DNA of 51,465 nt, from positions 1 to 51,465 of IMG/VR virus record IMGVR_UViG_3300025128_000057; one strand, written 5' to 3'. The notes under the pieces are model-generated. The model did no database searches and had not been told where the DNA came from. It saw only the letters and a list, made by a program, of their open reading frames with translations. Both the position numbers and the translations under genes were made by a program. This document shows, piece after piece, positions 1 through 51,367 of this stretch (position 1 is the first letter of the stretch; every line of letters starts with the position of its first letter). The stretch comes from a virus. Its lineage: Duplodnaviria; Caudoviricetes.

Positions 1-50
1 ATTAGGGTTTTCATTTGACTGGCTCCTTTGAGGTTTGCGTTTGCTGCCAT
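1..50 (-). CDS. 5' fragment of a gene running off the window (MAANANLKGASQ-MKTL...)
   Basis: Leaderless ATG at 50; in-frame SD (AAGGAG)-led ATG at 14; truncated by window edge. Confidence 0.55.
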   Translation of the reverse strand, partial: MAANANLKGASQMKTL

Positions 51-86
51 GACAATAACTATACACACTAGGGGAACCCCTAGCAA
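50..86 (-). promoter_or_regulatory. Family promoter P1 with palindromic operator
   Basis: Minus strand TTGCTA-17nt-TATAGT-7nt-ATGGCAGCAA; perfect palindrome CTAGGGGAACCCCTAG at 68-83. Confidence 0.85.
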
Positions 87-134
87 CCAAAAAGGGTAAA
101 AAGATGAGAATATTTGAGATTATTTTCTAGGCCC

Positions 135-178
135 AAAAAATGAAGATCCCGTGACCGGTCAGGGGCCACGGGACCTTC
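135..178 (-). terminator. Intrinsic terminator
   Basis: GAAGGTCCCGTGGCC-loop-GGTCACGGGATCTTC then ATTTTTT on minus strand; the right-end copy converts a G-U pair to A-U. Confidence 0.85.
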
Positions 179-180
179 TA

Positions 181-234
181 CTCGTTGGGAGTCAAGGAGG
201 GAGTTATGACAGCAACCGCCTCAACCAACGAGCG
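181..234 (-). ncRNA. Candidate 3'-UTR antisense RNA complementary to the shared early-mRNA leader
   Basis: Hairpin CTCGTTGG...CCAACGAG enclosing GCGGTTGCTGTCAT (anti-leader) and TCCCTCCTTGA (anti-SD); identical in both repeat copies. Confidence 0.6.
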
Positions 235-471
235 TTATGTTGTTCCCTGCACGATAGCAGGAACGTTCTCTTTCAGCCACTGGTCAGCGTGGCGCTGGAA
301 ACCTTCATCCATCATGTAACGCCAGATTGCTTCAGCGTCGTTACCGGCTCTCGTTAGCAGCGTTTCTACAAACTCATCGGGAAGCTGTAGTGAACCAAGC
401 CGGTTCACCAACGTAACTACCGCGGCTTGTTGACGCTTCGACAGATCAGTGATGCGATGAACTACCGTCAT
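235..471 (-). CDS. Hypothetical protein, 78 aa
   Basis: ORF conserved in second copy (50266-50502); 4-nt overlap with upstream gene. Confidence 0.8.
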   Translation of the reverse strand: MTVVHRITDLSKRQQAAVVTLVNRLGSLQLPDEFVETLLTRAGNDAEAIWRYMMDEGFQRHADQWLKENVPAIVQGTT

Positions 472-911
472 TCGATCACCAGCATTTCAAGCGTCGGCTC
501 AAACTCTTGGTCTGCTCTATCGCGTAGGCGTGGGTTCGTGAATCTGTCAACGAACTCGTCGCCGGTGCTGATTTCGCCGTTGTACTCAACCATCAGTTCA
601 TCAGGCATCTGCGTTCCGAACTTGCTGGTACGGGTAGTCCAGTAAACCTCTGGCGTTGGGTACTCAGGGTCAATTTCACTAATCCCGATTCCGAAGCCTT
701 TGTTGGTGCGGTCATCGCCTTGTAGTTCGTTGAAGATCATGCGAGTCAAATAATCTGGGTTGTTCCAAGCGTCACGGTTATCGTCAAGTGCTTTCGCAAG
801 TACCTGACAGATTTGGCTTCCTCTCCAATGTGTGTAAAAGAAGATGCTTGCTTCTCCGCTGGCTTCTCCGACTAGCGGTTGATTGATTTGGATGTTTCCT
901 CTATCACCCAT
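468..911 (-). CDS. Hypothetical phage protein (MGDRG...YTHWRG)
   Basis: ATG 911 with SD GAAAGGA; ORF-track extension to 986 runs through the tRNA-like element; conserved in second copy. Confidence 0.8.
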   Translation of the reverse strand: MGDRGNIQINQPLVGEASGEASIFFYTHWRGSQICQVLAKALDDNRDAWNNPDYLTRMIFNELQGDDRTNKGFGIGISEIDPEYPTPEVYWTTRTSKFGTQMPDELMVEYNGEISTGDEFVDRFTNPRLRDRADQEFEPTLEMLVIE

Positions 912-940
912 GACAGTCCTTTCTGTTGTTGTTGCTGTCG

Positions 941-1008
941 TACTGCGGAGAGGAATTGAACCTCTCACTTCCCCGAACGTCGGCAATTCGGAGGTAGCCT
1001 TTCGCAGC
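941..1008 (-). ncRNA. D-armless tRNA-like element 1
   Basis: Acceptor GCTGCGA/CCGCAGT (6 of 7 paired), T-arm AGAGG-TTCAATT-CCTCT, one central hairpin, discriminator A, then CGACAGCAAC; no CCA. Confidence 0.7.
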
Positions 1009-1023
1009 CCTACCCTGTGTGAA

Positions 1024-1344
1024 TCAGGCGTTCACCCCGTTCATCCGCTTCAAGAAGAATTCAGCGTCTAAAGATTGGACCACTAGGTCGTAGATGTCGT
1101 GCATTTCGCCAAACAACATTTTGGAAGCCAGAGCCTGAGCTTCAGCCATAGTCTTGAAGCTCTTGGAGTGGTCTAGTTCAGGGCAACTCACGACGAAAGA
1201 ATGTTCCTTCTCGCCAGTGCCTGCGGTAACGGTTACGCCTTCAATGGTGACGTTGAAATCAAGATTTGTGCGATTTCCTGTGAAACTTAGTTTGCGTGTT
1301 TCTGTATTCATTTCGGTTCCTCCTACGGTTCCGGTTGCTGTCAT
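1024..1344 (-). CDS. Hypothetical protein (starts 1344 leaderless, 1311 SD-led)
   Basis: First gene after P2; SD AGGAGG before 1311; conserved in second copy. Confidence 0.8.
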   Translation of the reverse strand: MTATGTVGGTEMNTETRKLSFTGNRTNLDFNVTIEGVTVTAGTGEKEHSFVVSCPELDHSKSFKTMAEAQALASKMLFGEMHDIYDLVVQSLDAEFFLKRMNGVNA

Positions 1345-1380
1345 GTAATGAACTATACACACTAGGGCGGCCCCTAGCAA
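1344..1380 (-). promoter_or_regulatory. Family promoter P2
   Basis: TTGCTA-17-TATAGT-7-ATGACAGCAACCG; operator CTAGGGCGGCCCCTAG 1362-1377. Confidence 0.85.
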
Positions 1381-1393
1381 CCTCATCCAGTAA

Positions 1394-1882
1394 TTAATTC
1401 GAAGATTTCCATTTACGGTCACCAGCACCCCCACGCAAACCAGCCTCCAACAAATATTGGCGCGTCTCCTCAGACTGAAATTCGGTTTCCTCAATATGAA
1501 TGTTCGTCGCCACCATGAAACCCTGCCTCGTTAGCACGTTCACGATCCCAGTGTTTCCCGGAGTTGTCTCACGCTCAACAGCGCGCCCCACCTCATCGTA
1601 AAGGTAAACCGCTAACCCTTGATCACGTAACTCACCTAAACGAGTACCAGCTTGGTTCGGTGAAATAGTGCGGCCAGCACCGTTCACAATATGTTCGCTC
1701 AACTCGTAAGCGGTCATGCCACGTTTCGGTTCACGAGCTAACGCTTTTATTGCTTGCGCTTTCTGGCCACCTGACTTGACGTTCCTCGCTGCGACTTGAC
1801 TCGTCTCCGGGTGATCGGCTCCGACTTTGCCGCCGACTTGGTCAGGGTTGAAGCCGAACAGGTTGTATTGCTCATTCGACAT
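1394..1882 (-). CDS. Putative winged-helix DNA-binding protein
   Basis: HPETSQVAA motif followed by MTAYELS...TRLGELRDQGL HTH-like segment. Confidence 0.55.
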   Translation of the reverse strand: MSNEQYNLFGFNPDQVGGKVGADHPETSQVAARNVKSGGQKAQAIKALAREPKRGMTAYELSEHIVNGAGRTISPNQAGTRLGELRDQGLAVYLYDEVGRAVERETTPGNTGIVNVLTRQGFMVATNIHIEETEFQSEETRQYLLEAGLRGGAGDRKWKSSN

Positions 1883-1991
1883 TTTGTTCTCGTTTCGCTT
1901 CGGCTGTTCGTAGCGCTCGTTCGACGTAAGGCATCAGGCGTTCCGGGTCAGCTTTCGCCCATTCCCTGAGGTGCTGTTCGTAGTCGTTCAT
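1872..1991 (-). CDS. Small hypothetical protein, 39 aa (MNDYEQHLREWAKADPERL...)
   Basis: Read manually; fills the gap, ATGA overlap with 1988-2281. Confidence 0.6.
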   Translation of the reverse strand: MNDYEQHLREWAKADPERLMPYVERALRTAEAKREQNVE

Positions 1992-2281
1992 ATCGCTGTG
2001 TCCCAGTCCGGGTGGTCTCCCGCGTGTTCGTAACCGGTTGCTTCTTCAAATCTTCTTTGACCGAGCGAGATTGCTAGGTCTTTGAAGGGGAGATTTGATT
2101 CTTGGTAAATCTCTTCAAAGGATTTTCCGGCGTCATGTAACTGCTGCACTTTTCGGACTATGGCTCTTATAGCGTTGCCATCTTTTCTTTCCAACGCCTC
2201 AGCCGTTTCCTTAATTTCCTTCCGTAGTGAGACAAGTTCAGGGATTGTCATGTCTGCGTGATTGCGCTCAAAGTCCACCAT
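1988..2281 (-). CDS. Hypothetical protein
   Basis: Operon packing, 1-nt overlap with upstream gene. Confidence 0.7.
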   Translation of the reverse strand: MVDFERNHADMTIPELVSLRKEIKETAEALERKDGNAIRAIVRKVQQLHDAGKSFEEIYQESNLPFKDLAISLGQRRFEEATGYEHAGDHPDWDTAI

Positions 2282-2499
2282 TATGCCTCCAGTTCCCAGC
2301 CGTAAGACTTCAAGCCGGTGCGATACTTAGCTACGGTTCCGGTGATGTCTCGTTTAGTGAGTGTCGTGTTCCATGCTTTGTTTTGAATCCGATTCCAGTG
2401 GTCTGTTTCGGTTCGTGATTTAGCTATTTCGTGTTCACGAAGTTTCCACTTATCTTCTAGGCGTTCGTGAATTTCGATAGGTACGAATGCTCTCATCAT
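2281..2499 (-). CDS. Hypothetical protein ending LKSYGWELEA
   Basis: Operon packing. Confidence 0.7.
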   Translation of the reverse strand: MMRAFVPIEIHERLEDKWKLREHEIAKSRTETDHWNRIQNKAWNTTLTKRDITGTVAKYRTGLKSYGWELEA

Positions 2500-2648
2500 G
2501 CTTCTAGCTCCCAGTCGTATGGCTTCAACTCTGTGCCGTGATGGACACGATCTAAAGCCAACTGCATTTCGGCTGCTCGCTGTTCGTCGCGCCGGTCCAG
2601 ATAAACACCGGCACCCATAAGACCGAAGATGAAGATTGCTTCAATCAT
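2496..2648 (-). CDS. Small membrane protein, 50 aa (MIEAIFIFGLMGAGVYL...LKPYDWELEA)
   Basis: Read manually; SD AGGAGG; ATGA overlap; hydrophobic N-terminus. Confidence 0.7.
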   Translation of the reverse strand: MIEAIFIFGLMGAGVYLDRRDEQRAAEMQLALDRVHHGTELKPYDWELEA

Positions 2649-2685
2649 TTTGACAGTTCCTCCTGTTTGGTTTTTGTTGCTGTCG

Positions 2686-2737
2686 TGCCCCGGTGCGGAA
2701 TCGAACCGCCGCTCGGGTAGGAGCGCCAGTCCGGGGC
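2686..2737 (-). ncRNA. D-armless tRNA-like element 2 (52 nt)
   Basis: Perfect acceptor GCCCCGG/CCGGGGC, T-arm GCGG-TTCGATT-CCGC, small hairpin GCTC/GAGC, discriminator A, then CGACAGCAAC. Confidence 0.72.
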
Positions 2738-2744
2738 GAGCCGC

Positions 2745-2996
2745 CTAGAGGCATCCCTTAAGAAGGCTGACGGTCCTTTCCACTTGGATCAGCGTTTCTC
2801 GCGCTTCGTCGGTGCGAGCCGATAAGCGAGTTCGTGCAAAGCGAGTCAGTCCATCACCGGTTTCGGCAAGTTCGGCTTCTAACCTAGCGAGACGAGCTTC
2901 AAGGAACCCCATCATCATGGCAGCGCTGATTTCGTGATCTTCGATTGTCTTGTTCATGACATTTCCTCCTGAGTTTGAGTTTCGGTTTGCTGTCAT
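2745..2996 (-). CDS. Hypothetical coiled-coil protein (starts 2996 leaderless, 2957 SD-led)
   Basis: First gene after P3; SD AGGAGG. Confidence 0.75.
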   Translation of the reverse strand: MTANRNSNSGGNVMNKTIEDHEISAAMMMGFLEARLARLEAELAETGDGLTRFARTRLSARTDEARETLIQVERTVSLLKGCL

Positions 2997-3031
2997 ATAA
3001 GAACTATACATACTAGGGGAACCCCTTGCAA
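2996..3031 (-). promoter_or_regulatory. Family promoter P3
   Basis: TTGCAA-17-TATAGT-6-ATGACAGCAA; operator CTAGGGGAACCCCTTG 3013-3028. Confidence 0.85.
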
Positions 3032-3061
3032 CCTAATTCAGTAAAAAGATTGAAAAAGTTT

Positions 3062-3433
3062 TCAGTCCCAAGAATTACTCAACAACCCAAGCGACTTCGC
3101 CACATCAGGATGACCATGAATCCAGTCATGGCAGCGACGGCAAACAGCGATCGTGTTATCTACGTCAAGGATTGAACCACCGGCTGACCTTTGTAACGGC
3201 TCATGGATATCAGTAGCGCGACCTTGGCAACGATCAGTTCGCCGTTTCTCCTGAGCGTATTCTGCGCCGAAATTGTTTTGGTGCCACATATAGATCGGTT
3301 CACCAGCTTCGCAGAAGGGTCGGACAGCGAGTTGCTCACGAACAAGATTTCGGCGTTGCCCTTGAATCTTCTGCCGTTTCTTCGACACTGACCTGAGTGG
3401 TGTCTTGCGTTGAATCGGGCCGCTACGTTTCAT
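3062..3433 (-). CDS. HNH endonuclease-like protein
   Basis: DIHE...RSAGG...NTIAVCRRCHDWIH; MKRSGPIQRKTPLR N-terminus. Confidence 0.75.
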   Translation of the reverse strand: MKRSGPIQRKTPLRSVSKKRQKIQGQRRNLVREQLAVRPFCEAGEPIYMWHQNNFGAEYAQEKRRTDRCQGRATDIHEPLQRSAGGSILDVDNTIAVCRRCHDWIHGHPDVAKSLGLLSNSWD

Positions 3434-4265
3434 TGGTTACATACCTATCAAGCGGATAGTTGTATTTGTGGTCTTCCCTCAGGTGAGGCGCTCGATCCGG
3501 TGCGATAACTTCATCGAACTCGTCAAGCACTCCGGGTATGTAGGTCCCGTCTTCGCCTTCTTCTGGGTCGTAATAGCCGAACAGTTCTTCTTCGGCTTTC
3601 GCTCGTGCTTCTTTTTCGTAAAGTTCGTATGTCACGAGGATCTTCAATTCGCGCTGCGCCATTAAAGACTGAATGAGCGGATCTACTTCTAGATCATCAT
3701 CATCGGTCGTGATTAGATAATCATCGTGATGGCGCGACAGTTTGCCTGTTTCCCAATTCCACGCGTAATGCTCGCCGTAGTCATGGACAAGGCCGGGTGT
3801 GACTTCTTCGTGCCAGTGGTTGTGGTGAGCGCGACAAAGCCAAGCCGTAGGCCAGTTGTGGTAGTCAGCAAAATAAGATTTAGGGCCAAAGTGGTGGTAT
3901 TCGATATCCGTGTTAGTGCATTGATTCTTTGTGTCAGCCCCGTGTGCGCATTGTCGTTCCTGCTGTGTTTCGTTTACCAACAACACGTCGTTCGCCCACG
4001 GAATATCCATTCGGATATCTTGTGCGTGCCAAACCAACAGATTCTTGATGTATTGACCGGTTCCGAAATACAAAAGTTTGCCGCACTCAGAACACTCTGG
4101 TCTGTTCTGTGTCGCTCCGTTACGAAGCAAACGCACTGTTAACACCGATGGCGCACCGTCGCATCTCTCACAAGTCGGAATTTTGTTGATGAAGTCTTCT
4201 TTGAATTGTTGTCCGGCTTCGGTTAAGTGAGGCAGTTCAGATCTCGTGTCGAATAGCTCAGTCAT
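3423..4265 (-). CDS. Hypothetical protein with CxxC pairs and HNH-like His cluster
   Basis: CERC, CSEC, EYHHFGP...WLCRAHHNHWH. Confidence 0.6.
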   Translation of the reverse strand: MTELFDTRSELPHLTEAGQQFKEDFINKIPTCERCDGAPSVLTVRLLRNGATQNRPECSECGKLLYFGTGQYIKNLLVWHAQDIRMDIPWANDVLLVNETQQERQCAHGADTKNQCTNTDIEYHHFGPKSYFADYHNWPTAWLCRAHHNHWHEEVTPGLVHDYGEHYAWNWETGKLSRHHDDYLITTDDDDLEVDPLIQSLMAQRELKILVTYELYEKEARAKAEEELFGYYDPEEGEDGTYIPGVLDEFDEVIAPDRAPHLREDHKYNYPLDRYVTNET

Positions 4266-4404
4266 TGGTTGCGTTTCCTTTCGTCATCCACGCTGTCGGG
4301 CAGATTTGGAGTTGATGACACGAACAGAATTGTTCGGCCAATAGTTCAGGGTGATCTTCTGTGAAAAGCGTTAACAAGGTTTTTGGGTCTGGTTTCTTCT
4401 TCAT
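4258..4404 (-). CDS. Small Cys-containing protein (MKKKPDPK...CSCHQLQICP)
   Basis: ATG 4404 overlaps upstream stop (ATGA). Confidence 0.55.
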   Translation of the reverse strand: MKKKPDPKTLLTLFTEDHPELLAEQFCSCHQLQICPTAWMTKGNATND

Positions 4405-4946
4405 GGTTGACACGTCCAGTAAAGCCACGAGTCGTTGCCGACTTTCCAAGCGTGATGCGCCATAGCGATGTTTGTTCGGGCAACAAAGATTCGGTCCCAC
4501 ACTTCAGGCGGCCACGCTTCTTCCCAAACATCATTCATCTGAAACAACCCTCTATCGATTGTTCCGTTCGTGTTCGGTTTACTGACTGCCCTCGGGTTCA
4601 TTCTCGATTCACAAGTAGCGACGGCGATGGCTTCCTCACAGTCCCATTCCCATTTCGGGTCACAGATCAACCGTTCCAACTCGGTGAGCGGTTCGTAACT
4701 TGCCAAAACAACTTTGATGGTTGTCGTTGGCATCGTCACCCACGGTTCAACGACCGTAGTGGTCGTAGGCGTTGCGATTGGGATGATTGCCACAGTTGTC
4801 GAAGGCGGTAATGCTATCGTCGTCACCACTGGGGCCGCTGTCGTGGGAATAACACCAGTAGCCACGGGACTTATGACCTGAGTCCTCTGGCCGCTAAACC
4901 CAAAAGCGAACACGACAAAGCACATGGCAGCGGCCACCAGTTTCAT
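4401..4946 (-). CDS. Secreted SLT/lysozyme-like lytic transglycosylase
   Basis: Signal-like MKLVAAAMCFVVFAFGF, Thr/Pro linker, CESRMNPRA (catalytic E) and GLFQ motifs. Confidence 0.8.
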   Translation of the reverse strand: MKLVAAAMCFVVFAFGFSGQRTQVISPVATGVIPTTAAPVVTTIALPPSTTVAIIPIATPTTTTVVEPWVTMPTTTIKVVLASYEPLTELERLICDPKWEWDCEEAIAVATCESRMNPRAVSKPNTNGTIDRGLFQMNDVWEEAWPPEVWDRIFVARTNIAMAHHAWKVGNDSWLYWTCQP

Positions 4947-5308
4947 GATCGTGGCTCGTATTCGCCGCTTGCCCATTGACCGTAGCTGTCCGGTAAACAA
5001 TCTTCGCATGGTCGAAAAGTATCAGTCTTCGTCTCAACGAAACCGGAGTCGCATTTCGGGCACGCTTCCATTCGGTCACGCCTCCCGATCAACGATTGTT
5101 TGCTTGCTTCCTTTTCAGCTAACGCCATGAACTCATCTAAAGATGGGAACTTCGCTCCCGTCCGGGCAACCGTAACAGCCGTTCGGCTGATCACGCTGAT
5201 TGGATGTTGGCTCCATGTGTCTAACCACAGGGTTCGCATTTGCTCCGACGCGTAACTGGTTGGGAACGCCCCAAGGAGCTTGTCGAAGGCTTTCTCAAAT
5301 TGATTCAT
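4943..5308 (-). CDS. Replication-region protein with C-terminal zinc ribbon
   Basis: FPSLDEF motif, CPKC...CEDC; SD GAGG. Confidence 0.6.
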   Translation of the reverse strand: MNQFEKAFDKLLGAFPTSYASEQMRTLWLDTWSQHPISVISRTAVTVARTGAKFPSLDEFMALAEKEASKQSLIGRRDRMEACPKCDSGFVETKTDTFRPCEDCLPDSYGQWASGEYEPRS

Positions 5309-5831
5309 GGCTACCGCCTCGCCCAATCTGTTTCATGCCTTCCATAAGTTCGTCAGGCATTTCAAGTGTCGGATCAGCTTGCTGAAGGCGTCGGCGGTCA
5401 TCACGCTCTTTCGCTGCGTTAAAGGCTTTCACGAAGTGGAACCGATCGTTATCGGGTCGCTCCGAACGACAGAGGTCTCCCCAGCCGCCGCAGGACTTCA
5501 TAGCAGCCTTGATTTCATCATTCAGGTCACCCGGCCCTCCATTAAAACCAACTCGCCTTATACGTTCGCACACAAGCTCCCATGCCTGTTCGCCTGTCAT
5601 GGCCTCAGGGTCATGGATTGCGGCTCGCCGGATAGTCGTGATCGCAGGGAAATAGGCTTGTTCCGTAAGGAGCGTATTCTTCGTTGCTTCCCAAGACCTT
5701 GGGTGAAGATCCCATAGCAAGTTGATGTATTCATCAATCTGAGGGTCAGTCAGTTCCCGGTTGTAAATTTCAGATAGCTCTGTGATCGCTATTGCCGCTG
5801 CCCGTCGCCCTTGCCGTTCTGTCTCGTTCAT
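5295..5831 (-). CDS. Putative replicative helicase loader/inhibitor (G39P-like)
   Basis: YFPAITTIR, EQAWELV...IRRVG, GGWGDLC; directly after initiator. Confidence 0.6.
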   Translation of the reverse strand: MNETERQGRRAAAIAITELSEIYNRELTDPQIDEYINLLWDLHPRSWEATKNTLLTEQAYFPAITTIRRAAIHDPEAMTGEQAWELVCERIRRVGFNGGPGDLNDEIKAAMKSCGGWGDLCRSERPDNDRFHFVKAFNAAKERDDRRRLQQADPTLEMPDELMEGMKQIGRGGSHESI

Positions 5832-6628
5832 AGTTCGCCCCGATCAACTTTGGCTTGCATTCGCTTAAAGGTTTTCTGGCCTGCTGACAACGGTTCGCTG
5901 CCAACGATCTCATCTTCCCAGCGTTTATCACGTACCCAGCGTTCAGGGTCTTGCCTGTATTGCTTCTCCCGTGACGCTGCATATTCCGTTGCCTTCGCAA
6001 TAACCAGTTCGGCCAGAGCCACATCCTTGATGTGTTTGGCCCAATGCTTTTGGGTGGCTGGCTTATTGACCTTCTTGCCATAAACATCCCAGAACTCATC
6101 AAACATTTCAGTGGCAAGTTGTTTCTCATCAACAAGTTCAATTTCGCCCGAATCAAAAAACTCCAGTATTTGAGTTCCTTTTTTATGAGTTTCTATTAAT
6201 GAGTTAATTGGGAGCGCGTTTTCACGCGCCTCGACCCGCGTGGTTTCACGCGCCTCGACCCGCGTGGTTTCGCGCTCCTCCCTTCGCGCGTTATCGCGCG
6301 CTTCCTCAACCACTTCTTTAGGGTAAAGAAGCTCGTACAGGTTGCTGGTCTGGCGTCCATCGTCATACTGAGATTGAACGATGAGCAAACCCTTTTCTTC
6401 TAGTTCAGCCCTCGCCCTGCGGAGTGTGCCTGAGTTGGTGCCTTCAGGTAGTAGTTCAAGTAATGAGCGGCTACTAGGAAAGCACTTGTTCGTTTTAGTG
6501 TTACGGAACTTTGCAAGAGCGATCCATAACCGTAGGGCGGTCGGTGACAATTTCACCTGTAGCAGGTCAACGGGTATGTGGATAGTGTTTGCATCCCACT
6601 TTGCCATTTTTGTGTTAGGCTGGTTCAT
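5828..6628 (-). CDS. Replication initiator (N-terminal HTH, C-terminal FDEFWDVY..K domain)
   Basis: LSPTALRLWIAL...CFPS...TLRRARAELEEKGL...QTSNLY; internal DNA repeats. Confidence 0.75.
   Translation of the reverse strand: MNQPNTKMAKWDANTIHIPVDLLQVKLSPTALRLWIALAKFRNTKTNKCFPSSRSLLELLPEGTNSGTLRRARAELEEKGLLIVQSQYDDGRQTSNLYELLYPKEVVEEARDNARREERETTRVEARETTRVEARENALPINSLIETHKKGTQILEFFDSGEIELVDEKQLATEMFDEFWDVYGKKVNKPATQKHWAKHIKDVALAELVIAKATEYAASREKQYRQDPERWVRDKRWEDEIVGSEPLSAGQKTFKRMQAKVDRGEL
6155..6302. repeat. Iteron-like repeats plus AT-rich tract (candidate origin)
   Basis: 24-bp TTTCACGCGCCTCGACCCGCGTGG twice plus degenerate CGCG units; AT-rich 6155-6210. Confidence 0.6.
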
Positions 6629-6662
6629 ACCAGCACTCCTTCCATAGTGTTGGTTTCATTGG

Positions 6663-6710
6663 ACTGAAAATGACCCACCCGAGACTCTCACCTCGGGTGG
6701 GCCTTTCAGT
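6663..6710 (-). terminator. Strong hairpin/terminator after DUF932-like gene
   Basis: CCCACCCGAG/CTCGGGTGGG stem followed by TCATTTT on minus strand. Confidence 0.6.
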
Positions 6711-6715
6711 TTAGC

Positions 6716-7750
6716 TCAGGCAGGGATTAGCTCGCGCCATGCCTTCTCAGTGAGGTTGCCTACACGGCCAACCGCTACCCGATCCATGAGCTTGTCGCCC
6801 TGAGCGGTAGCGTCACCTTGATTAGCGTGCTGCTCAATTTCGCTGATCGCTTGAACCAAGCCCCAACCGGTCATCCTTGCACTTGGCAGAATCGTTTCCG
6901 AATCCCTCCAGTTCGTCAGGATGGCTTCACGCTTGTTGCCACGCATCGTGATCGCTCGATCACTGAGCACCTTGCCAGCGTCATCCCGAAAGATTTGCTC
7001 GCCGTTCACAACTTCACCGTTCAATGGAACAAGTTTGTTCAAGATGATGTTTCCGCCTTCACGGGAAAGTGGGCGGTTCATCAAGACACCGATCTGCCGG
7101 TCCATTTCTTTGGCCCATTCAACCTGTAGGTGTAAGGCCTCTCGGGCAGCGTCGATACGGTTCCAGATGTTCGCGGTGTGCTTGAAGCTGAACACGCTTT
7201 TCGTGTTGTTGTTTTTGCCGTAGAAGGTTGTCGAAAGCGCATTGGTGCAGCTAGGCACCATCGCAGTCGAAGCGACCCTCAATGCCGTTGACCCGTCGAA
7301 TGAGTTAAGGAAACCCATGTACGGTTGAACGTCAGGCATGTTCTGCATCTCGTAAGGCAGTTTGCCGAACATGAAAGTTTGGGCACCGCCTTTACGTTTC
7401 CCGGCCCATTCAGGTGACCATCCGTCACCGACGAGAGCGTCCATCAATCCAACGACTTGCTCAGTCTGGATTACGTGGTAACCCTTTCCTACGATGCCGA
7501 GTATGTCTCCGGTTGTTTCGTTGACAGTTAAGCGACTGTCGGGCATTTCAACTTTACGGGGTAACCGTAAGGCTGGGTTGTTGCTCTCAGGGAGAGAAAC
7601 CTCAGCGACGTGCGGAACCTTAGCTACGGTGAAGTCAAGGCCAGCGACTTTGATCGCTTCGTTGATACCGAGGCCAGAGATGTCCTCTGCGTCGACCGAC
7701 TCCCAAGGCGCATGCCTGTGAGACGGGTTTCGGGTAATTTCTGTTGTCAT
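6716..7750 (-). CDS. DUF932/DUF945-family protein
   Basis: AGLDFTV, LGIVGKGY, NSFDGST, CTNAL, KHT, TGWGLVQAISE motifs. Confidence 0.8.
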   Translation of the reverse strand: MTTEITRNPSHRHAPWESVDAEDISGLGINEAIKVAGLDFTVAKVPHVAEVSLPESNNPALRLPRKVEMPDSRLTVNETTGDILGIVGKGYHVIQTEQVVGLMDALVGDGWSPEWAGKRKGGAQTFMFGKLPYEMQNMPDVQPYMGFLNSFDGSTALRVASTAMVPSCTNALSTTFYGKNNNTKSVFSFKHTANIWNRIDAAREALHLQVEWAKEMDRQIGVLMNRPLSREGGNIILNKLVPLNGEVVNGEQIFRDDAGKVLSDRAITMRGNKREAILTNWRDSETILPSARMTGWGLVQAISEIEQHANQGDATAQGDKLMDRVAVGRVGNLTEKAWRELIPA

Positions 7751-9092: not shown

Positions 9093-9119
9093 TGCTCCTC
9101 CTTGGAGATTGATTGATGT

Positions 9120-9178: not shown

Positions 9179-9654
9179 CCCCTATCCCAGCAGTCGCCCA
9201 CCTCCATCCAGTTGTCCACGGCGTACCCATCCGGAAGCGCAGCGACCCACTCTGAGCGAGTCATGTTGGTCACGTTGGTTGACAGCCCGATACGGTCTGC
9301 GAAGTGAAGGGTGTTAAGGCGCATCTTCCGATACACCAACTCGCCTTCGTGTTCTTCCCAGACGCCGACGCGATTGTCGTCACCGGTTGACAGGATGTGA
9401 TAGCGCTCCGCGACTTCGTACATATTGTCGGAAGTGATTTTGTTGATACCAAGGTTCGGCATCATCTGGATAACCGAAGTGGTTATCCGATGCTGGTTCC
9501 GTTGGTAATTGGTTGAGCCTTCAGTGAACACCTCCCCGTTTTGGCTTGGGTCGATGTACGTTTCAGCCAGAAGGCTGTCAGCGTTTCGACAATTTGCGAT
9601 GTTCCATGTGAGTGGCATATTTGAATCTCCGATTCTTGTTGCGATTACTGCCAT
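9175..9654 (-). CDS. Hypothetical protein (starts 9654 leaderless, 9618 SD-led)
   Basis: First gene after P5. Confidence 0.75.
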   Translation of the reverse strand: MAVIATRIGDSNMPLTWNIANCRNADSLLAETYIDPSQNGEVFTEGSTNYQRNQHRITTSVIQMMPNLGINKITSDNMYEVAERYHILSTGDDNRVGVWEEHEGELVYRKMRLNTLHFADRIGLSTNVTNMTRSEWVAALPDGYAVDNWMEVGDCWDRG

Positions 9655-9702
9655 GACTTCACTTTATCATGAATCACCACCGTTGTCAAGGGGTAGCCCT
9701 AA
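9654..9702 (-). promoter_or_regulatory. Leftward divergent promoter P5
   Basis: TTGACA-17-TAAAGT-6-ATGGCAGTAATCGC; operator CAAGGGGTAGCCCTAA 9687-9702 lies upstream of/over -35. Confidence 0.8.
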
Positions 9703-9749
9703 TAATATGGTCAAGGATTCTTGAAGAACAAAGTTTCTTGAACAAATAG

Positions 9750-9787
9750 TTGCTAGTGGGTCCCCTATCATATATAGTTCAGGTATG
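9750..9787 (+). promoter_or_regulatory. Rightward divergent promoter P6
   Basis: TTGCTA-17-TATAGT-6-ATGGCAGCAATC; operator CTAGTGGGTCCCCTAT 9753-9768. Confidence 0.85.
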
Positions 9788-10009
9788 GCAGCAATCACAA
9801 ACTCAAAAGGAGCTACCATGACCCACTCATTCGACCAGACCGACAGCTACGTCTTCGACGATCGGCATGTCGCCCAAGGCGGACTCGAAGGTTGGACCGC
9901 AACCTGCGGAGCCTGCGGCTACCAGATGGGCACCTCACTGAGCGACAAGCACTTCATTGTCAAAGACATGAACGATCACGTTCGCTACATGATTAAAGAG
10001 GGCCGATAA
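9785..10009 (+). CDS. Hypothetical protein (starts 9785 leaderless, 9818 SD-led)
   Basis: First gene after P6; CGAC motif. Confidence 0.75.
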   Translation: MAAITNSKGATMTHSFDQTDSYVFDDRHVAQGGLEGWTATCGACGYQMGTSLSDKHFIVKDMNDHVRYMIKEGR

Positions 10010-10915: not shown

Positions 10916-10917
10916 CA

Positions 10918-11496: not shown

Positions 11497-11544
11497 ATGG
11501 GTAGGGGCCACCGCGTACCCCTTACCGTCTGTTATCATTACGGC

Positions 11545-19237: not shown

Positions 19238-19276
19238 TTGCTAGGGTGTCCCCTAGTAGGTATAGTTATTCTCATG
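19238..19276 (+). promoter_or_regulatory. Family promoter P7
   Basis: TTGCTA-17-TATAGT-7-ATGGCAGCAA; operator CTAGGGTGTCCCCTAG 19241-19256. Confidence 0.85.
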
Positions 19277-19522
19277 GCAGCAAACGAAACCTCAAATCAA
19301 GGAGCCAGCCAAATGAACACCTCAGTAACCACAACCCTAACGCTAGTAGAAGATCTAAGAGAAGGAGACGTTTGCAGATTCATCGGCACCGACGCGACCG
19401 TCGCAACCCTTACAAGAAGCAGCGACAGGTTGACCGTAACCTTCGAGTCCGGTGTTGAGACAAGTTTCTGGTTCCAAGAAGGTGTCTTTAACTTGTGTGA
19501 AGTTGTGGAGGCTGCTGTTTGA
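19274..19522 (+). CDS. Cassette gene, hypothetical (starts 19274 leaderless, 19313 SD-led)
   Basis: Own promoter and terminator. Confidence 0.75.
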   Translation: MAANETSNQGASQMNTSVTTTLTLVEDLREGDVCRFIGTDATVATLTRSSDRLTVTFESGVETSFWFQEGVFNLCEVVEAAV

Positions 19523-28098: not shown

Positions 28099-28442
28099 GA
28101 GAAGTAAAGGCTATAGGTGCGGCCATTGTCGGGACGGTTATCGGTGACGCTGACAAGCTCATCAGTCATGTAGACATCAATGTCTGGCCGATTGTTCTTG
28201 AATGCTTGTTCGGCGATCAACTCGAAGATTTTGTTGGCGATGCGCTTGATGTTGGTAGCGGCTCGCTTCGCATCATTGATGCTGTCACCGTTTGCGTAGT
28301 TACATGCACCGTCAGCGTAGTAGTAGGTGCCTAAGCAGCCGCAAGCGCAGCCACGTTCACCTGAGTAGGCCTGAACTGTGTTGTTGATCATGGTTTCTTT
28401 GAGATTCATGACATTCCCTTCCTGAGTTTGAGTTGCTGTCAT
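28095..28442 (-). CDS. Cassette gene (starts 28442 leaderless, 28409 SD-led), GCACGC motif
   Basis: First gene after P9; YSGERGCACGCLGTY. Confidence 0.75.
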   Translation of the reverse strand: MTATQTQEGNVMNLKETMINNTVQAYSGERGCACGCLGTYYYADGACNYANGDSINDAKRAATNIKRIANKIFELIAEQAFKNNRPDIDVYMTDELVSVTDNRPDNGRTYSLYFS

Positions 28443-28477
28443 AAGATAATCATACACACTAGGGGCCACCCTAGCAA
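28442..28477 (-). promoter_or_regulatory. Family promoter P9
   Basis: TTGCTA-17-TATGAT-6-ATGACAGCAAC; operator CTAGGGGCCACCCTAG 28459-28474. Confidence 0.85.
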
Positions 28478-47892: not shown

Positions 47893-49020
47893 ATGGCGAA
47901 CGTTCTGGAAGTGTTGCAAGCCGCCGGTTTGGATGTTGAGGCGGAACCGGGTTGGGAAACACGGCGCGGTTCTAAGTATTCGTTTGATCACAGGCCGGGT
48001 GGCACGTTGGGGATGATTGTGCATCACACGGCTGCTGGCGGTTCAGCGGACATGCCGTGTCGCAACATCTGTGTGAACGGTCGATCAGATTTGAAGGGAC
48101 CGCTCGTTCAGTTCCTCCTCGGTCGATCCGGCAAACTGCTGTTGATCTCACAGAACCGTTGTAACCATGCTGGTCGTGGCTCATCCGAAGTCATCAAAGA
48201 CTTAGAAGCGAGCCGGGACATCACAACAGAGTTCGATGCTGGGCAAAGTGCATACAACGCACGCAACTTCGGTCGGGACAACGACTACCGCAAGGCTAAT
48301 GGCCGGTTCTGGGGTGTCGAAGTTGAGAACAACGGTATTGGTGAGGAATATTCCCAAGCCCAAATCAAAGCGCTAGTGAAACTTTGCGCTGCCATGTGTA
48401 AATGGCAAGGCTGGAATCACAACCGAATCATTCATCATCGTGAGTGGACTAGTCGTAAATACGACATGAGCTATACCGGGCCGTTGCGCGAGTACGTGCA
48501 GAAGATGATGGTTTCCAGCCAGTGGCGTGTACCCAAGAGTGCGGTCCAGAGTGGCACCACTCCGCCTGTAACGCCCCCTAAGCGATCCGCAGTGTTGAAA
48601 CAGGGAAGCGTGGGGGAAGAAGTTAAAGAGCTTCAGCAGGCGCTCTCAAAGCTCGGGTACCGAGTTGAGGTAACCGGCGATTTCGACACCGCTACTCATT
48701 ACGGGGTTGTCAGGTTCCAACGTAAACACCGATTGACGATTGACGGCATCGTTGGGCCTCAAACTTTGAGCAAGATTCGCTCTACACAGAAGCGACCATC
48801 AGTCACAACTGAAGTGCGCGAGTTTCCCGGCACGCTCATTAAGCGAGGTAGCCGTGGCCCGGATGTAAGATGGGTGCAACAACATATAGGAGTCAAGCTG
48901 ATTGATGGCGTGTTCGGTCGGGGAACCGAGCGTGCTGTAAAAGATTTCCAGAAGCGTCGTCGCCTGAAGGCGGACGGCATTATCGGTCGTCAAACTTGGT
49001 CGGCCATCCATAACGCATAG
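47893..49020 (+). CDS. Endolysin: amidase_2 plus two peptidoglycan-binding domains
   Basis: IVHHTA, NHAG, GVEVEN, HREW..RK.D; two DGI.G..T repeats. Confidence 0.9.
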   Translation: MANVLEVLQAAGLDVEAEPGWETRRGSKYSFDHRPGGTLGMIVHHTAAGGSADMPCRNICVNGRSDLKGPLVQFLLGRSGKLLLISQNRCNHAGRGSSEVIKDLEASRDITTEFDAGQSAYNARNFGRDNDYRKANGRFWGVEVENNGIGEEYSQAQIKALVKLCAAMCKWQGWNHNRIIHHREWTSRKYDMSYTGPLREYVQKMMVSSQWRVPKSAVQSGTTPPVTPPKRSAVLKQGSVGEEVKELQQALSKLGYRVEVTGDFDTATHYGVVRFQRKHRLTIDGIVGPQTLSKIRSTQKRPSVTTEVREFPGTLIKRGSRGPDVRWVQQHIGVKLIDGVFGRGTERAVKDFQKRRRLKADGIIGRQTWSAIHNA

Positions 49021-49557: not shown

Positions 49558-49584
49558 AAAGAACCGCCCCCGAAGGAGCGGCCC
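49551..49584 (-). terminator. Intrinsic terminator
   Basis: GGGCCGCTCC-TTCG-GGGGCGGTTC-TTTCTATTTT on minus strand; resembles 19549 terminator. Confidence 0.85.
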
Positions 49585-49596
49585 CTCTACTTAGAT

Positions 49597-50091
49597 TTAG
49601 TAGTCGTAGGTGCTTCCACGAAGGTCAGCGCGAACGAGGTTCTCGCTGTACAGGCTGTCCTTGACCTTGATGCCGTTGTCGATGAACGCATCTCGAAGCC
49701 GGTATGAACCACTAGCGTGGTCGAACTTGTTCAGTTCAACGTGCATGCCAAGGTTTTCCAAGACGAAGATCGGTGCGTCGTATTCGTGCGCTGTTTTCTC
49801 AGTCTGGTATCCGTTGCGATTTACGGTTTCAACAGCGAAGCTCGTGCTGCTATCGCCGAGGGCGTAGTTGAATTCAAAGTAGTGGCAGCTAACGGCGCTG
49901 CAAGCGGTCCATGCTGGGCGACCGGCTCCGGGGAGAACGGTCAAGTTTCCGGTTCCTCCGCACTGGTCGTTCTGGACGATCAGGTGAGCTAGTTCCGCTG
50001 GGTCTACTTTGCGAGCGGTCTTGCTGGCGGTGCTGTAGTTAGGGATAGTGTTCATTTCGTTGGCTCCTTTGAGGTTTGGGGTTGCTGCCAT
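49597..50091 (-). CDS. Hypothetical protein (starts 50091 leaderless, 50055 SD-led)
   Basis: First gene after P11. Confidence 0.75.
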   Translation of the reverse strand: MAATPNLKGANEMNTIPNYSTASKTARKVDPAELAHLIVQNDQCGGTGNLTVLPGAGRPAWTACSAVSCHYFEFNYALGDSSTSFAVETVNRNGYQTEKTAHEYDAPIFVLENLGMHVELNKFDHASGSYRLRDAFIDNGIKVKDSLYSENLVRADLRGSTYDY

Positions 50092-50127
50092 GACAATAAC
50101 TATACACACTAGGGGGACCCCTTGCAA
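50091..50127 (-). promoter_or_regulatory. Family promoter P11 (homolog of P1)
   Basis: TTGCAA-17-TATAGT-7-ATGGCAGCAACC; operator 50109-50124. Confidence 0.85.
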
Positions 50128-50165
50128 CCAAAACAGGAGAATATTTGAGATTAATTTCTAAGCCC

Positions 50166-50265
50166 AAAAAATGAAGATCCCGTGACCGGTCAGGGGCCAC
50201 GGGATCTTCTACTCGTTGGGAGTCAAGGAGGGAGTTATGACAGCAACCGCCTCAACCAACGAGCG
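50166..50265 (-). ncRNA. Second copy of antisense hairpin plus terminator
   Basis: One substitution relative to 135-234. Confidence 0.6.
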
Positions 50266-50502
50266 TTATGTTGTTTCCTGCACGATAGCAGGAACGTTCT
50301 CCTTCAGCCACTCATCAGCGTGGCGTGCGAAACCCGCGTCCATCATGTAACGCCAGATCGCTTCCGCATCATTACCTGATCTCCGTAGCAGCGTTTCCAC
50401 AAACTCATCAGGAAGCTGTAACGAGGCAAGCCGGTTCACTAACGTGACTACCGCAGCTTGCTGACGCTTCGGCAGGTCAGTGATGCGATGAATCACCGTC
50501 AC
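50266..50502 (-). CDS. Hypothetical protein, variant of 235-471
   Basis: 69/78 aa identical. Confidence 0.8.
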   Translation of the reverse strand: MTVIHRITDLPKRQQAAVVTLVNRLASLQLPDEFVETLLRRSGNDAEAIWRYMMDAGFARHADEWLKENVPAIVQETT

Positions 50503-50942
50503 TCGATCACCAGCATTTCAAGCGTCGGCTCAAATTCATGGCCTGCCCTCGTGCGTTCCGCTGTTCGAAGTTTAAGATCAATGAACTCGTCGCCGGTCAT
50601 CAGGTCGCCGTTGTATTGGACCATCAGTTCATCAGCCATCTGCGTACCGAACTTGCTGGTACGGGTAGTCCAGTAAACCTCTGGCGTTGGGTGCTCAGGG
50701 TCAATCTCGCAGGTGCCGATTCCGAAGCCTTTGTTGCTGCGATCGTCGCCTTGAAGTTCGTTGAAGATCATCCGTGACAAGTAGTCCGGGTTGTTCCAAG
50801 CGTCACGGTTATCGTCAAGCGCTTTCGCTAAGACTTGGCAAATTTCGCTGCCGCGCCAGTGCGTATAGAAGTAGATATCTGATTCGCCGCTGACTTGTCC
50901 GACTAGCGGTTGATTGATTTGGATGTTTCCTCTATCACCCAT
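50499..50942 (-). CDS. Hypothetical protein, variant of 468-911
   Basis: Same length and motifs; divergent near C-terminus. Confidence 0.8.
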   Translation of the reverse strand: MGDRGNIQINQPLVGQVSGESDIYFYTHWRGSEICQVLAKALDDNRDAWNNPDYLSRMIFNELQGDDRSNKGFGIGTCEIDPEHPTPEVYWTTRTSKFGTQMADELMVQYNGDLMTGDEFIDLKLRTAERTRAGHEFEPTLEMLVIE

Positions 50943-50971
50943 GACAGTCCTTTCTGTTGTTGTTGCTGTCG

Positions 50972-51031
50972 TACTGCGGAGAGGAATTGAACCTCTCACT
51001 TCCCCGAACTTCGGAGGTAGCCTTTCGCAGC
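50972..51031 (-). ncRNA. tRNA-like element 1, variant lacking 8 nt of the central loop
   Basis: Acceptor and T-arm identical to 941-1008. Confidence 0.7.
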
Positions 51032-51046
51032 CCTACCCTGTGTGAA

Positions 51047-51367
51047 TCAGGCGTTCACCTCGTTCATGCGATCCAAGAAGCATTGAGCTTCTTCAGAGTG
51101 GACCACTAGGTTGTAGATGTCGTGCATTTCGCCAAACAACATTTTGGTAGCCAGAGCCTGAGCTTCAGCCATAGTCTTGAAGCTCTTGGAATGGCCTAGT
51201 TCAGGGCAACTCACGACGAAAGAATATTCTTTCTCGCCAGTGTCTGCGGTAACGGTTACGCCTTCAATGATGACGTTCAAATCAATGTTTGTCCGATTGC
51301 CTGTGAAACTTAGTTTGCGTGTTTCTGTATTCATTTCGGTTCCTCCTGAGGTTCCGGTTGCTGTCAT
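51047..51367 (-). CDS. Hypothetical protein, variant of 1024-1344
   Basis: Starts 51367/51334. Confidence 0.8.
   Translation of the reverse strand: MTATGTSGGTEMNTETRKLSFTGNRTNIDLNVIIEGVTVTADTGEKEYSFVVSCPELGHSKSFKTMAEAQALATKMLFGEMHDIYNLVVHSEEAQCFLDRMNEVNA

Follow-up and report, generated by a model that had tools for sequence, protein, structure and literature searches.

A portable phage expression cassette with a predicted 5'-terminal AUG in frame with an SD-led start codon

The genome of an uncultured siphovirus-like phage, roughly 50 kb long (record IMGVR_UViG_3300025128_000057, whose whole 51,465 nt were analysed and are called the window in what follows), contains about ten copies of one portable expression cassette. 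Its parts are a promoter, an operator-like palindrome between the -35 and -10 boxes, an ATG at the predicted transcription start (+1), a conserved ATGRCAGCAA and an A/C-rich, T-poor stretch. At the sequence level, a 5'-terminal AUG followed by a downstream SD-led start is found at seven independent sites of the window, and in ten further clusters of leaders from relatives. The reading that we favour, with a probability of about 0.6, is that the two AUGs are kept in one frame so that two ribosome entry routes would give the same protein.

The repeated promoter is of the sigma70 type, TTGCTA-17-TATAGT. Eight start pairs had been listed in a preliminary description of the sequence, and all eight are indeed ATG/ATG on the given strand, with offsets of 36, 33, 39, 36, 33, 39, 33 and 36 nt. 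Among them the -35 box varies between TTGCTA, TTGCAA and TTGACA, and the -10 box between TATAGT, TAAAGT and TATGAT, with 17 nt between the boxes; no stop codon separates the paired ATGs, and the ORFs that open at the first ATG, 74-164 codons long, share their stop with those of the second. The full 32-nt promoter word has five matches with at most three mismatches, against none in 100 shuffles. In copies P1-P7, 9-11 of the 12 promoter positions agree with the sigma70-type consensus and the spacer is 17 nt, and a regular expression recovers the same type at P8, P9, P11 and P12. The upstream ATG lies 6-7 nt past the -10 box in ten of eleven window copies, the exception being P4, and this distance is 5 nt in one relative; the ATG is therefore at the predicted +1, promoter geometry alone placing the putative first nucleotide of the transcript at its A. 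Position -1 is a pyrimidine in every window copy. The leaders are 69% A+C and 10% T, and GGAG or GGAGG stands 6-9 nt upstream of the second ATG in all window copies. The copies are listed in Table 1.

Table 1. Cassette copies, control leaders and an additional promoter in the window
Feature	Position	Strand	Description
P1 cassette	12..86	-	-35/-10 at 86-58; ATG 50 (predicted +1), A/C-rich leader, SD, ATG 14; 36 nt, in frame
Internal control 1	909..1013	-	tRNA-like element without D arm; A/C-rich leader opening ACG; SD; ATG 911; 30 nt
P2 cassette	1309..1380	-	ATG 1344, SD-led ATG 1311; 33 nt, in frame
Internal control 2	2646..2760	-	tRNA-like element; leader opening ACG; SD; ATG 2648; 38 nt, not 3n
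P3 cassette	2955..3031	-	ATG 2996, SD-led ATG 2957; 39 nt, in frame
P4	7748..7811	-	TTGACA-17-AATAAT; GTG 7778 in place of ATG, 3 nt past -10 box
P5 cassette	9616..9689	-	TTGACA-17-TAAAGT; ATG 9654, SD-led ATG 9618; 36 nt, in frame; divergent from P6
Extra sigma70-like promoter	9683..9711	+	TTGTCA-17-TATGGT, upstream of P6, without ATG at +1
P6 cassette	9750..9820	+	ATG 9785, SD-led ATG 9818; 33 nt, in frame
P7 cassette	19238..19315	+	between terminase and portal; ATG 19274, SD-led ATG 19313; 39 nt, in frame
P8	22211..22549	+	same promoter; ATG 22247 opens 100-codon gene directly; without SD-led start
P9 cassette	28407..28477	-	-10 TATGAT; ATG 28442, SD-led ATG 28409; 33 nt, in frame
P10	35696..35823	-	TTGACA...CATAAT; ATG 35788; 30-codon leaderless ORF, TGA overlaps ATG 35699
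P11	50053..50127	-	variant copy of P1; ATG 50091 / 50055; 36 nt, in frame; first gene 152 aa
P12	51332..51403	-	variant copy of P2; ATG 51367 / 51334; 33 nt, in frame

The window ends in a direct repeat (1-1424 versus 50041-51465, 85-92% identical): because the two ends of the record overlap, P1 and P11 are one site, and so are P2 and P12. Copy P12 was missing from the earlier list. The gene of P1 extends past the left edge of the window, the first gene of P2 (95 aa) has no family match, and a terminator-like hairpin (19549-19570) follows the small gene of P7. As had been described, P8 has the leaderless start only, and at both P4 and P10 a leader ORF ends in an ATGA overlap with the next gene, which after P10 is 35699-35286 (-); the leader ORF of P4, however, opens with GTG rather than ATG. 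Its leader of 29 nt holds a 10-codon GTG frame whose TGA overlaps ATG 7750, and since the -10 box ends just 3 nt before the GTG, the transcript probably starts within the leader. As for the extra promoter at 9683, a transcript from it would have the first ATG of P6 internal.

The evidence for a constraint on frame comes from the comparison of leaders that carry a 5' ATG with leaders that do not. When the window and its relatives are pooled, 14 of 17 clusters of ATG-type leaders are in frame, with lengths of 30, 33, 36 and 39 nt, two have a 5' frame that stops exactly on the start codon, and one conflicts; against an expectation of 1/3 the binomial p is 4.7e-5, an upper bound on significance, as clusters share ancestry. 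Other clustering thresholds give 12-18 in frame of 15-21. It had been proposed that random frames in the leaders of relatives would speak against the idea, and this is mostly not what is seen: in the ten clusters without a window member, seven are in frame, two end on the start codon and one conflicts (p=0.02, again with shared ancestry). The out-of-frame case, L114/L115, has a 32-nt leader with a 30-codon overlapping ORF. Stop/start overlaps (ATGA or TGATG) occur at P4, P10, L303 (29 nt) and L299/L309 (41 nt).

Control leaders belong to the same family but start with NCG and follow a tRNA or a tRNA-like element; two of them are in the window, and internal control 1 has a variant copy at 50940-51040. 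Only 5 of 13 control clusters are in phase, with lengths of 28, 30, 33, 34, 36, 37, 38 and 40 nt, and they differ from the ATG-type leaders by Fisher's test (p only 0.018, for clusters that share ancestry). Frame is thus kept in ATG-type leaders and drifts in leaders without a 5' ATG, which speaks for ribosomes that start at the 5' ATG and translate on through the SD-led one, and lends partial support to the earlier suggestion that first genes are built for both initiation modes. In separating SD-led from leaderless-only copies an SD was required by construction, so that retention of the SD lies outside what these counts measure.

Leaders that open with GTG are in phase in two of four clusters, and those of L117, L203 and L294 are out of frame at 31 nt. 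If the host initiates at a 5' GTG as mycobacteria do, these leaders weigh against the model. The best cultured relatives of the portal and capsid are from Arthrobacter phages (45-48% identity), with Roseobacter and Pseudomonas phages next (37-46%); this likeness to Arthrobacter phages is the sole pointer to an actinobacterial host, and may be taken as a hint. In a search of genome contigs the matches were confined to Firmicutes prophages and did not exceed 50% identity, and scans of 40 window proteins against Pfam or PHROGs gave no WhiB domain.

Genes that carry the cassette but no SD point to the use of its ATG. A search for the cassette pattern gave 53 distinct sites, of which 16 are leaderless-only ORFs of at least 41 codons without an SD-led start, three of these being evident chance hits. 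The protein of P8 and its L324 orthologue share 88% identity that begins at residue 1: judging by such positions, the same cassette drives SD-less genes, with a conserved protein that starts at the cassette ATG. Where both starts are present, the proteins of L299 and L294 are 79% identical from the SD-led Met, although the leader of L299 is of the ATG type (33 nt) and that of L294 of the GTG type (31 nt); by this comparison the conserved protein begins at the SD-led ATG.

How much the window itself contributes to the frame argument depends on how its leaders are related. The preliminary description spoke of different spacer sequences and computed a chance of (1/3)^7, about 1 in 2200; the spacers are in fact paralogues that align with one another, and the odds are consequently too strong, since they overstate independence. 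In optimal pairwise alignments, P1 and P7 are set apart by two gaps, of 1 and 4 nt, and one mismatch, and P3 and P9 by gaps of 7 and 1 nt and one mismatch: these two pairs would differ by compensating indels, which supports selection on frame. However, MAFFT aligns P1 and P7 with one 3-nt gap and about five mismatches (counted by hand), and the compensating reading thus depends on the alignment. For the M(A/T)A-type tag mentioned earlier, a function finds no backing: substitutions among P1, P11 and the copy of a relative lack third-position bias, each of the four codons that differ between P1 and P11 encodes another residue, and one gene has differing leaders. The extension peptide, as far as its sequence can tell, gives no sign of selection.

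A mechanism that would account for these observations is the following. Placed directly on a gene, as at P8 and in many genes of the relatives, the cassette would yield a leaderless mRNA and a protein from its own ATG. Placed ahead of a gene with its own SD and ATG, it would send ribosomes loaded at the 5' AUG through the SD-led AUG, and selection would then hold the two AUGs in one frame, or have the 5' frame end exactly at the start codon. Either entry would give one and the same protein, longer by 10-12 N-terminal residues in the case of the 5' AUG, and in-frame traffic from the 5' AUG would avoid out-of-frame passage over the ribosome-binding site. On transcripts from upstream promoters or from tRNA-type processing, the SD-led start would be the sole usable one. 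That both starts are used, and that read-through explains their common frame, we infer from sequence.

Frame could also have been inherited without selection, if a unit reaching from the -35 box to the SD-led ATG, with an ancestral spacing of 3n, had been copied within the genome and between phages, and had changed length by slippage of 5-6-nt CAAAC-like repeats. The leaders are clearly paralogous, the same leader is found before different genes (L288/P3, L291/P1, L301/P2, L299/P6), and the net 6 nt between P3 and P9 resembles the loss of a repeat unit. However, within the same family the control leaders vary in length nucleotide by nucleotide from 28 to 40 nt, so mutational input is not confined to multiples of three; taken singly, the gaps of the optimal pairwise alignments measure 1, 4, 7 and 1 nt, and 3n results only when those of a pair are added up, and the same four lengths recur across the 14 in-frame clusters. 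We hold simple inheritance to be improbable. Even less credence goes to the idea that the first ATG is untranslated, CATGRCAGCAA, as a stretch near the promoter or among the first to be transcribed, being retained for the sake of transcription or RNA stability, and the frame relation arising by chance in a small sample. This idea draws on the conservation of RCAGCAA after tRNA or tRNA-like elements with no ATG ahead, which implies a role independent of the ATG, and on P4, where RCAGCAA is kept along with a GTG that the transcript probably does not include; it has to face long conserved SD-less ORFs that begin exactly at this ATG, including the 88%-identical protein, and a frame bias specific to ATG-bearing leaders.

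A third alternative assigns a single start to each class of transcript: the 5' AUG alone would serve promoter-proximal mRNA, and the SD-led start would serve read-through or processed transcripts, or be a relic, with no isoforms from the same mRNA. Many cassette-driven genes lack any SD, and in some leaderless-only copies, such as L203 and L296, an in-frame ATG follows after about 9-10 codons with no GGAG ahead of it, which would fit an SD lost by decay; read-through transcripts are permitted by the promoter at 9683 (+) and, ahead of P2, P3 and P7, by the lack of terminator-like hairpins. Against this stand the GGAG or GGAGG found before every second ATG of the window, and the tRNA-type leaders, in which the same initiation region appears to work alone. 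An exposed SD-AUG on a leaderless mRNA would be expected to recruit 30S subunits too and, by analogy, the E. coli 5'-uAUG mRNAs described in passages of PMC4965119 use both starts. On balance this division of labour seems rather unlikely.

Beyond the preferred reading, in which two in-frame entry routes give one protein, a wider one can be tentatively put forward; with all its parts taken jointly it is possible, though well short of probable. A common A/C-rich leader (RCAGCAA...SD...AUG) would be made by either of two modules: a promoter module that starts the RNA on AUG, giving leaderless entry in frame with the SD start, or a tRNA or tRNA-like module that is removed by tRNA-processing enzymes, leaving SD entry only. 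The two modules would be swapped by recombination inside the shared leader. If true, any small accessory gene (moron) could be expressed from its own promoter and from read-through transcripts, and obligatory dual-mode initiation would have left the in-frame rule as its visible trace.

Phage lambda cI is transcribed leaderless from one promoter and leadered from another, and both transcript classes use the same AUG. The present genes are alike in that a phage gene is predicted to have two transcript classes, leaderless and SD-leadered, and unlike in that two AUGs, 10-13 codons apart, are kept in frame. In the relevant passages of PMC4965119, cI serves as a leaderless control. The A/C-rich leaders also recall CA repeats, which enhance leadered and leaderless translation when downstream of the start codon (Martin-Farmer and Janssen 1999, as summarised in part of the review PMC9031893); that enhancer was established by experiments on synthetic repeats in E. 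coli, and the resemblance of the phage leaders is in composition only.

The closest parallels are in E. coli and in mycobacteria, and our verdict is that the pattern would be a stereotyped phage form of the known "5'-uAUG plus SD" mRNA. According to passages of Beck, Fleming and Janssen (2016, PMC4965119), an E. coli mRNA that has both an AUG at its 5' end and an SD is active in both modes, the 5'-uAUG binding 70S ribosomes and being translated. A 5'-terminal AUG and a conventional SD leader and start would likewise share one mRNA in the phage, and some E. coli 5' ORFs have the ATGA overlap with the gene that is seen at P4, P10 and L303. The E. coli 5' ORFs are short and have their own stops, no in-frame N-terminal extension being described in those passages; the phage differs by a stereotyped, repeated cassette, by mostly in-frame fusion, and by comparative evidence that frame is maintained.

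In mycobacteria, the leaderless "isoform ORFs" treated in parts of Smith et al. (2022, PMC9094748) and Shell et al. (2015, PMC4633059) have an RTG at the transcription start, in frame with the annotated leadered start and sharing its stop; a 5' ATG suffices for initiation, and a 5' GTG initiates as well (PMC4633059). An N-terminally extended form is predicted here in the same way. In these accounts the mycobacterial cases are scattered over the chromosome, and many are regarded as mis-annotation or noise, whereas in the phage a strong SD precedes the second start, at which the conserved protein begins, and the distance between the starts is held within narrow limits, 30-39 nt; copies of the GTG type lack the frame constraint, while the mycobacterial 5' GTG initiates. 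For these phages, an SD alone is insufficient to assign start codons, and the family offers a compact set of reporter-ready cassettes. Work on E. coli 5'-uAUG mRNAs and on mycobacterial "pervasive translation" has raised the question of whether an AUG at the 5' end of an SD-leadered mRNA has a function or is noise. In the phage family one leader is found either with a 5' AUG or lacking it, a natural experiment in which a length of 3n is kept only in the AUG-bearing copies: this would be evolutionary evidence that such 5' AUGs are translated often enough for selection to act.

Eleven copies of the promoter cassette in the window carry an ATG at the predicted start of transcription. The copies are labelled P1 to P12, and P11 and P12, at the right end, are variants of P1 and P2 at the left. 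The -10 hexamer, mostly TATAGT, lies 6 or 7 nt before each first ATG, the -35 box (TTGCTA, TTGCAA or TTGACA) lies 17 nt 5' of that hexamer, and the base preceding the ATG is a pyrimidine: together these features make the A of the first ATG the expected start position of a sigma70-type promoter. A 32-nt promoter word has five matches with at most 3 mismatches in the window, and none in 100 shuffles. The motif RCAGCAA is conserved directly after the first ATG. In most copies the -35/-10 spacer is filled by a 16-nt palindrome, CTAGGGGnnCCCCTAG, that resembles an operator, to which a regulator of the phage or the host would bind; the window also encodes an HTH_36 protein.

The preliminary description listed eight start pairs, each joining the first ATG to a second one led by a Shine-Dalgarno (SD) sequence, with offsets of 36, 33, 39, 36, 33, 39, 33 and 36 nt. 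All eight are ATG...ATG on the strand indicated, with the frame open between them. P8 has, as reported there, only the leaderless start. An ATGA overlap between a leader ORF and the next gene had been claimed for both P4 and P10; it holds for P10, whose ORF has 30 codons, and for the 10-codon frame of P4, though this opens with GTG where the other copies have ATG. Since the -10 box of P4 ends merely 3 nt before that GTG, its RNA probably starts within the leader. The leaders are 69% A+C and 10% T, and those of P1 and P7 fold no better than shuffles (z-scores -0.33 and +0.90).

The window, about 50% G+C, takes in a complete IMG/VR virus record (51,465 bases). PHROGs and Pfam identify its main structural and lysis genes (see table), an SSB and a DUF932 protein, and give no family for any of the first genes behind the cassettes. 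The two ends of the record form a direct repeat of 85-92% identity (first 1,424 and last 1,425 bases, offsets 50023-50041 nt), and in the related contig L291 each repeated feature is present once only, in unchanged order. It is thus simplest to regard the record as a circular or permuted genome of about 50 kb, with an overlap assembled from two variants; P1 and P11 are one site seen twice, and so are P2 and P12. Megablast of window 1-20000 against a collection of cultured phages gave no match. At protein level the nearest cultured phages are those of Arthrobacter, with 45-48% identity in portal and capsid; phages of Roseobacter, Microbacterium and Pseudomonas come next. A portal scan of genome_contigs matched Firmicutes prophages alone, none above 50% identity. 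The structural genes lean slightly toward actinophages. A run of genes of DNA-hypermodification type lies directly 5' of the terminase. In the structural region, an ORF of 1,052-1,180 aa matched neither PHROGs nor Pfam at the thresholds applied. The terminase-portal gap, which in loci L113-L127 of relatives is the region 5' of the portal, is a hot spot for the insertion of small genes. In the window, one plus-strand gene lies there, served by a cassette promoter and a terminator of its own. Among relatives the small genes in this gap differ, and part of them are on the minus strand; each comes with a separate cassette or tRNA-like element. In some relatives the gap has no such gene.

Coordinates of features in the window
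Feature	Position	Strand	Remark
Direct repeat	1-1424; 50041-51465		the two ends of the record
First ATG of cassette copies	50; 1344; 2996; 9654; 9785; 19274; 22247; 28442; 35788; 50091; 51367		eleven copies
Spacer palindrome, examples	62-77	-
Spacer palindrome, examples	19244-19259	+
37-codon ORF	206-319; 50237-50350	+	antisense to end of gene 235-471 (copy at 206-319)
tRNA-type leader with candidate pairing	909-941; 2646-2686	-	GACAG with CTGTC/CTGTT
ATG behind tRNA-type leader	911
ATG behind tRNA-type leader	2648		leader 38 nt (script)
tRNA-like element	941-1013; 2684-2760; 50970-51040	-	inside operons
HTH_36 protein	5828-6628	-
DNA-hypermodification-type run	12858-17090	+	ParB_N, Tet/JBP 2OG-Fe dioxygenase, FkbM methyltransferase, dual-specificity phosphatase, P-loop nucleotide kinase 3; amino acid:DNA transferase weak, below Pfam's cut-off
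Large terminase	17619-19004		PHROGs/Pfam
Terminase-portal gap	19004-19658
Portal	19658-20986		PHROGs/Pfam
Head-morphogenesis protein			PHROGs/Pfam
P8 region	22200-22320		compared with L298 and L295
Structural-region ORF	23689-27231	+
Major capsid protein	31615-32565		PHROGs/Pfam
P10 ORF	35696-35788	-	next gene 35699-35286
Endolysin	47893-49020		PHROGs/Pfam

A portal search yielded 80 related loci. The best full-length relative, genome G001 (portal 81% identical), has no promoter cassette: the same regular expression gives 0 sigma70-like matches there, and TGRCAGCAA has 2 hits only. The cassette is therefore lineage-specific, and G001 can be used only for the control on tRNA-type leaders described below. 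Pattern scans that define the promoter and the first ten leader bases, leaving the downstream part unconstrained, returned 10 stretches from viral_contigs and 26 from metagenome_contigs. A looser first pattern gave 112 stretches in viral_contigs, of which 2 passed the -35/-10 filter, none with the palindrome; a scan for the -35 variant TTGACAGGG gave 2 stretches, both unrelated; and a scan for leader plus GGAGG, free of the -35 constraint, gave 35, namely the L114, L115, L118 and L127 contigs again and otherwise sites with neither the cassette -35 box nor the palindrome. Two sites from this last scan stayed outside the counts: L364, which is sigma70-like and in frame at 36 nt, and L358, at 31 nt and lacking a recognisable -35.

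The agreement in frame had been given odds of (1/3)^7 on seven independent cases. The seven draws are not independent: the leaders align with one another, and in relatives one and the same leader is found before different genes. Consequently, independent tests were sought. A script classed 53 distinct cassette-pattern sites in the window and the relatives' loci: in 23 rows the two starts are in frame, in 3 the stop of the 5' ORF overlaps the start codon (coupled), 3 are in conflict, 16 are leaderless-only, and 8 are short or unclear. These 8 were left out of the counts; among them are the 30-codon ORFs of P10 type, in which the start is farther off than the 75 nt searched. P1, P4 and a GTG copy in L113, missed by the regular expression, were added by hand before clustering, in which copies of the same length with at most 4 differences were merged. 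The first clustering gave 16 clusters of ATG-type leaders, those that open with ATG: 13 in frame, 2 coupled, and one conflicting (L114/L115, 32 nt), the sole ATG-type leader to break the rule. An additional in-frame cluster found later, L329 (36 nt), brings the total to 14 of 17; a binomial test against 1/3 gives 4.7e-5, for clusters that share ancestry. The clusters that have no copy in the window are in frame in 7 cases of 10 (p=0.02), and changing the clustering threshold leaves 12-18 of 15-21 in frame, a stable result. ATG-type leaders in relatives mostly keep the frame. Compensating indels are a further possible reading of the leaders, one that depends on the alignment. Optimal pairwise alignment gives gaps of 1 and 4 nt and one mismatch for P1 and P7, and gaps of 7 and 1 nt and one mismatch for P3 and P9, multiples of three in sum only; in the MAFFT multiple alignment, P7 has one 3-nt gap and about five mismatches, as counted in that alignment.

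A control is available where the A/C-rich leader lies directly 3' of a tRNA-like element, its SD unchanged and the bases before the start codon often unchanged as well. This tRNA-type leader opens with ACG or GCG, which leaves no 5' AUG to read it from, and occurs at two sites in the window, in a variant copy at its right end, and in many relatives. The elements lie inside operons, also in L057, L113, L296, L319, L320 and L324, and consist of an acceptor-like stem and a canonical T arm, with the D arm absent and the conserved leader NCGACAGCAA, SD and ATG following directly 3'. ARAGORN passes over these elements that lack a D arm, and in several relatives it calls a tRNA-Trp gene, tRNA-Trp(CCA), at the same position; in the window, ARAGORN gives 0 tRNAs and Rfam, at gathering threshold, 0 matches. 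The arrangement suggests that tRNA-processing enzymes may cut the polycistronic RNA, setting the 5' end of the downstream message. The control set, 26 rows minus 9 that have no SD-led start and minus L312, a chance hit, forms 13 clusters with leaders of 28, 30, 30, 33, 34, 34, 34, 36, 36, 37, 38, 38 and 40 nt, of which 5 are in phase, the level expected by chance. Fisher's exact test of 14/17 versus 5/13 gives p=0.018, again for clusters that share ancestry. GTG-type leaders, which open with GTG, form 4 clusters, 2 of them in phase, and one homologous group of leaders has lengths 30 (ATG), 30 (GTG), 31 (GTG), 31 (GTG) and 32 (ATG) nt. Single-base indels therefore arise and persist in this leader family, rarely with ATG at its head.

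In 11 of the 13 tRNA-type clusters, GACAG at the 5' end can pair with CTGTC or CTGTT right before the start codon, so that the SD would be looped. Analogous pairs are TGACA...TGTCA in P3 and P9, and TGGC...GCCA in P1, P7 and P11. The pairs are invariant within each leader type, so that the pairing is a candidate structure only.

That the first ATG can serve as a start codon is indicated by genes that have the same promoter and no SD-led start, in which a long ORF opens exactly at the first ATG: these are the leaderless-only rows, among which L304, L305 and L308 are evident chance hits, and further cases were seen in a later scan. The P8 protein is 88% identical from residue 1 to its orthologue in L324, where the promoter copy has diverged. 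L298 and L295 have the P8 promoter and about the first nine codons in common, followed by unrelated genes, so that the exchange boundary of the module can fall inside N-terminal coding sequence. The P10 ORF, leaderless and with a hydrophobic core, recurs in L204, L289, L315 and L320; its final codons contain the SD of the next gene, and its stop overlaps that gene's start. A genuine small protein is probably made from it, with translational coupling to that gene. Another small ORF, of 37 codons, opens on the opposite strand with the start sequence of the first ATG, ATGACAGCAACC. It lies directly after a terminator hairpin, has a strong SD (AAGGAGGG) 5' of it, and is conserved in both end copies.

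The second ATG has GGAG or GGAGG 6-9 nt 5' of it in all window copies, and tRNA-type leaders rely on the same initiation region alone. The gene found in L299/L309 and its homologue in L294 are 79% identical, both from the methionine of the second ATG, and one has an ATG-type leader of 33 nt, the other a GTG-type leader of 31 nt: what is conserved in the protein therefore excludes the N-terminal extension. In agreement with this, P1 and P11 differ in four codons, and each difference changes the residue.

The most likely model for these observations is as follows. The cassette RNA would begin on AUG, and ribosomes loading there would read through the SD and the second AUG. Since an out-of-frame pair would yield a junk product and send traffic across the ribosome-binding site, selection would keep the frame, or end the 5' ORF exactly at the start codon. 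The SD-led start would be needed for transcripts that begin elsewhere than at the cassette; such transcripts are plausible because no terminator-like hairpin was found before P2, P3 or P7, a second promoter, with no ATG, lies 5' of P6, and tRNA-type processing would leave the same leader minus its AUG. We infer the transcription start, the use of both starts and the read-through rationale from sequence, and in a host that, like mycobacteria, initiates on 5' GUG, the GTG-type exceptions would speak against the model.

Parts of this model have known counterparts. In E. coli, according to PMC4965119, mRNAs with a 5'-terminal AUG and an SD-led start work in both modes, and some 5' ORFs finish in an ATGA overlap. 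According to PMC4633059 and PMC9094748, leaderless initiation in mycobacteria requires a 5' ATG or GTG, which also suffices for it, and in-frame "isoform ORFs" that are leaderless are common. In their A/C richness the leaders are similar to CA-rich enhancers that, downstream of a start codon, promote both leaderless and leadered translation in E. coli, as a review describes (PMC9031893). A literature search over openly accessible main texts found no account of such a phage cassette; Table S2 of PMC4965119 and the ORF tables of PMC9094748 may list in-frame 5' AUG cases. Compared with the E. coli and mycobacterial cases, the present one involves a mobile cassette of stereotyped form that a single phage genome repeats about ten times, an in-frame fusion within a narrow window of 30-39 nt, and a matched control showing that the frame is maintained.
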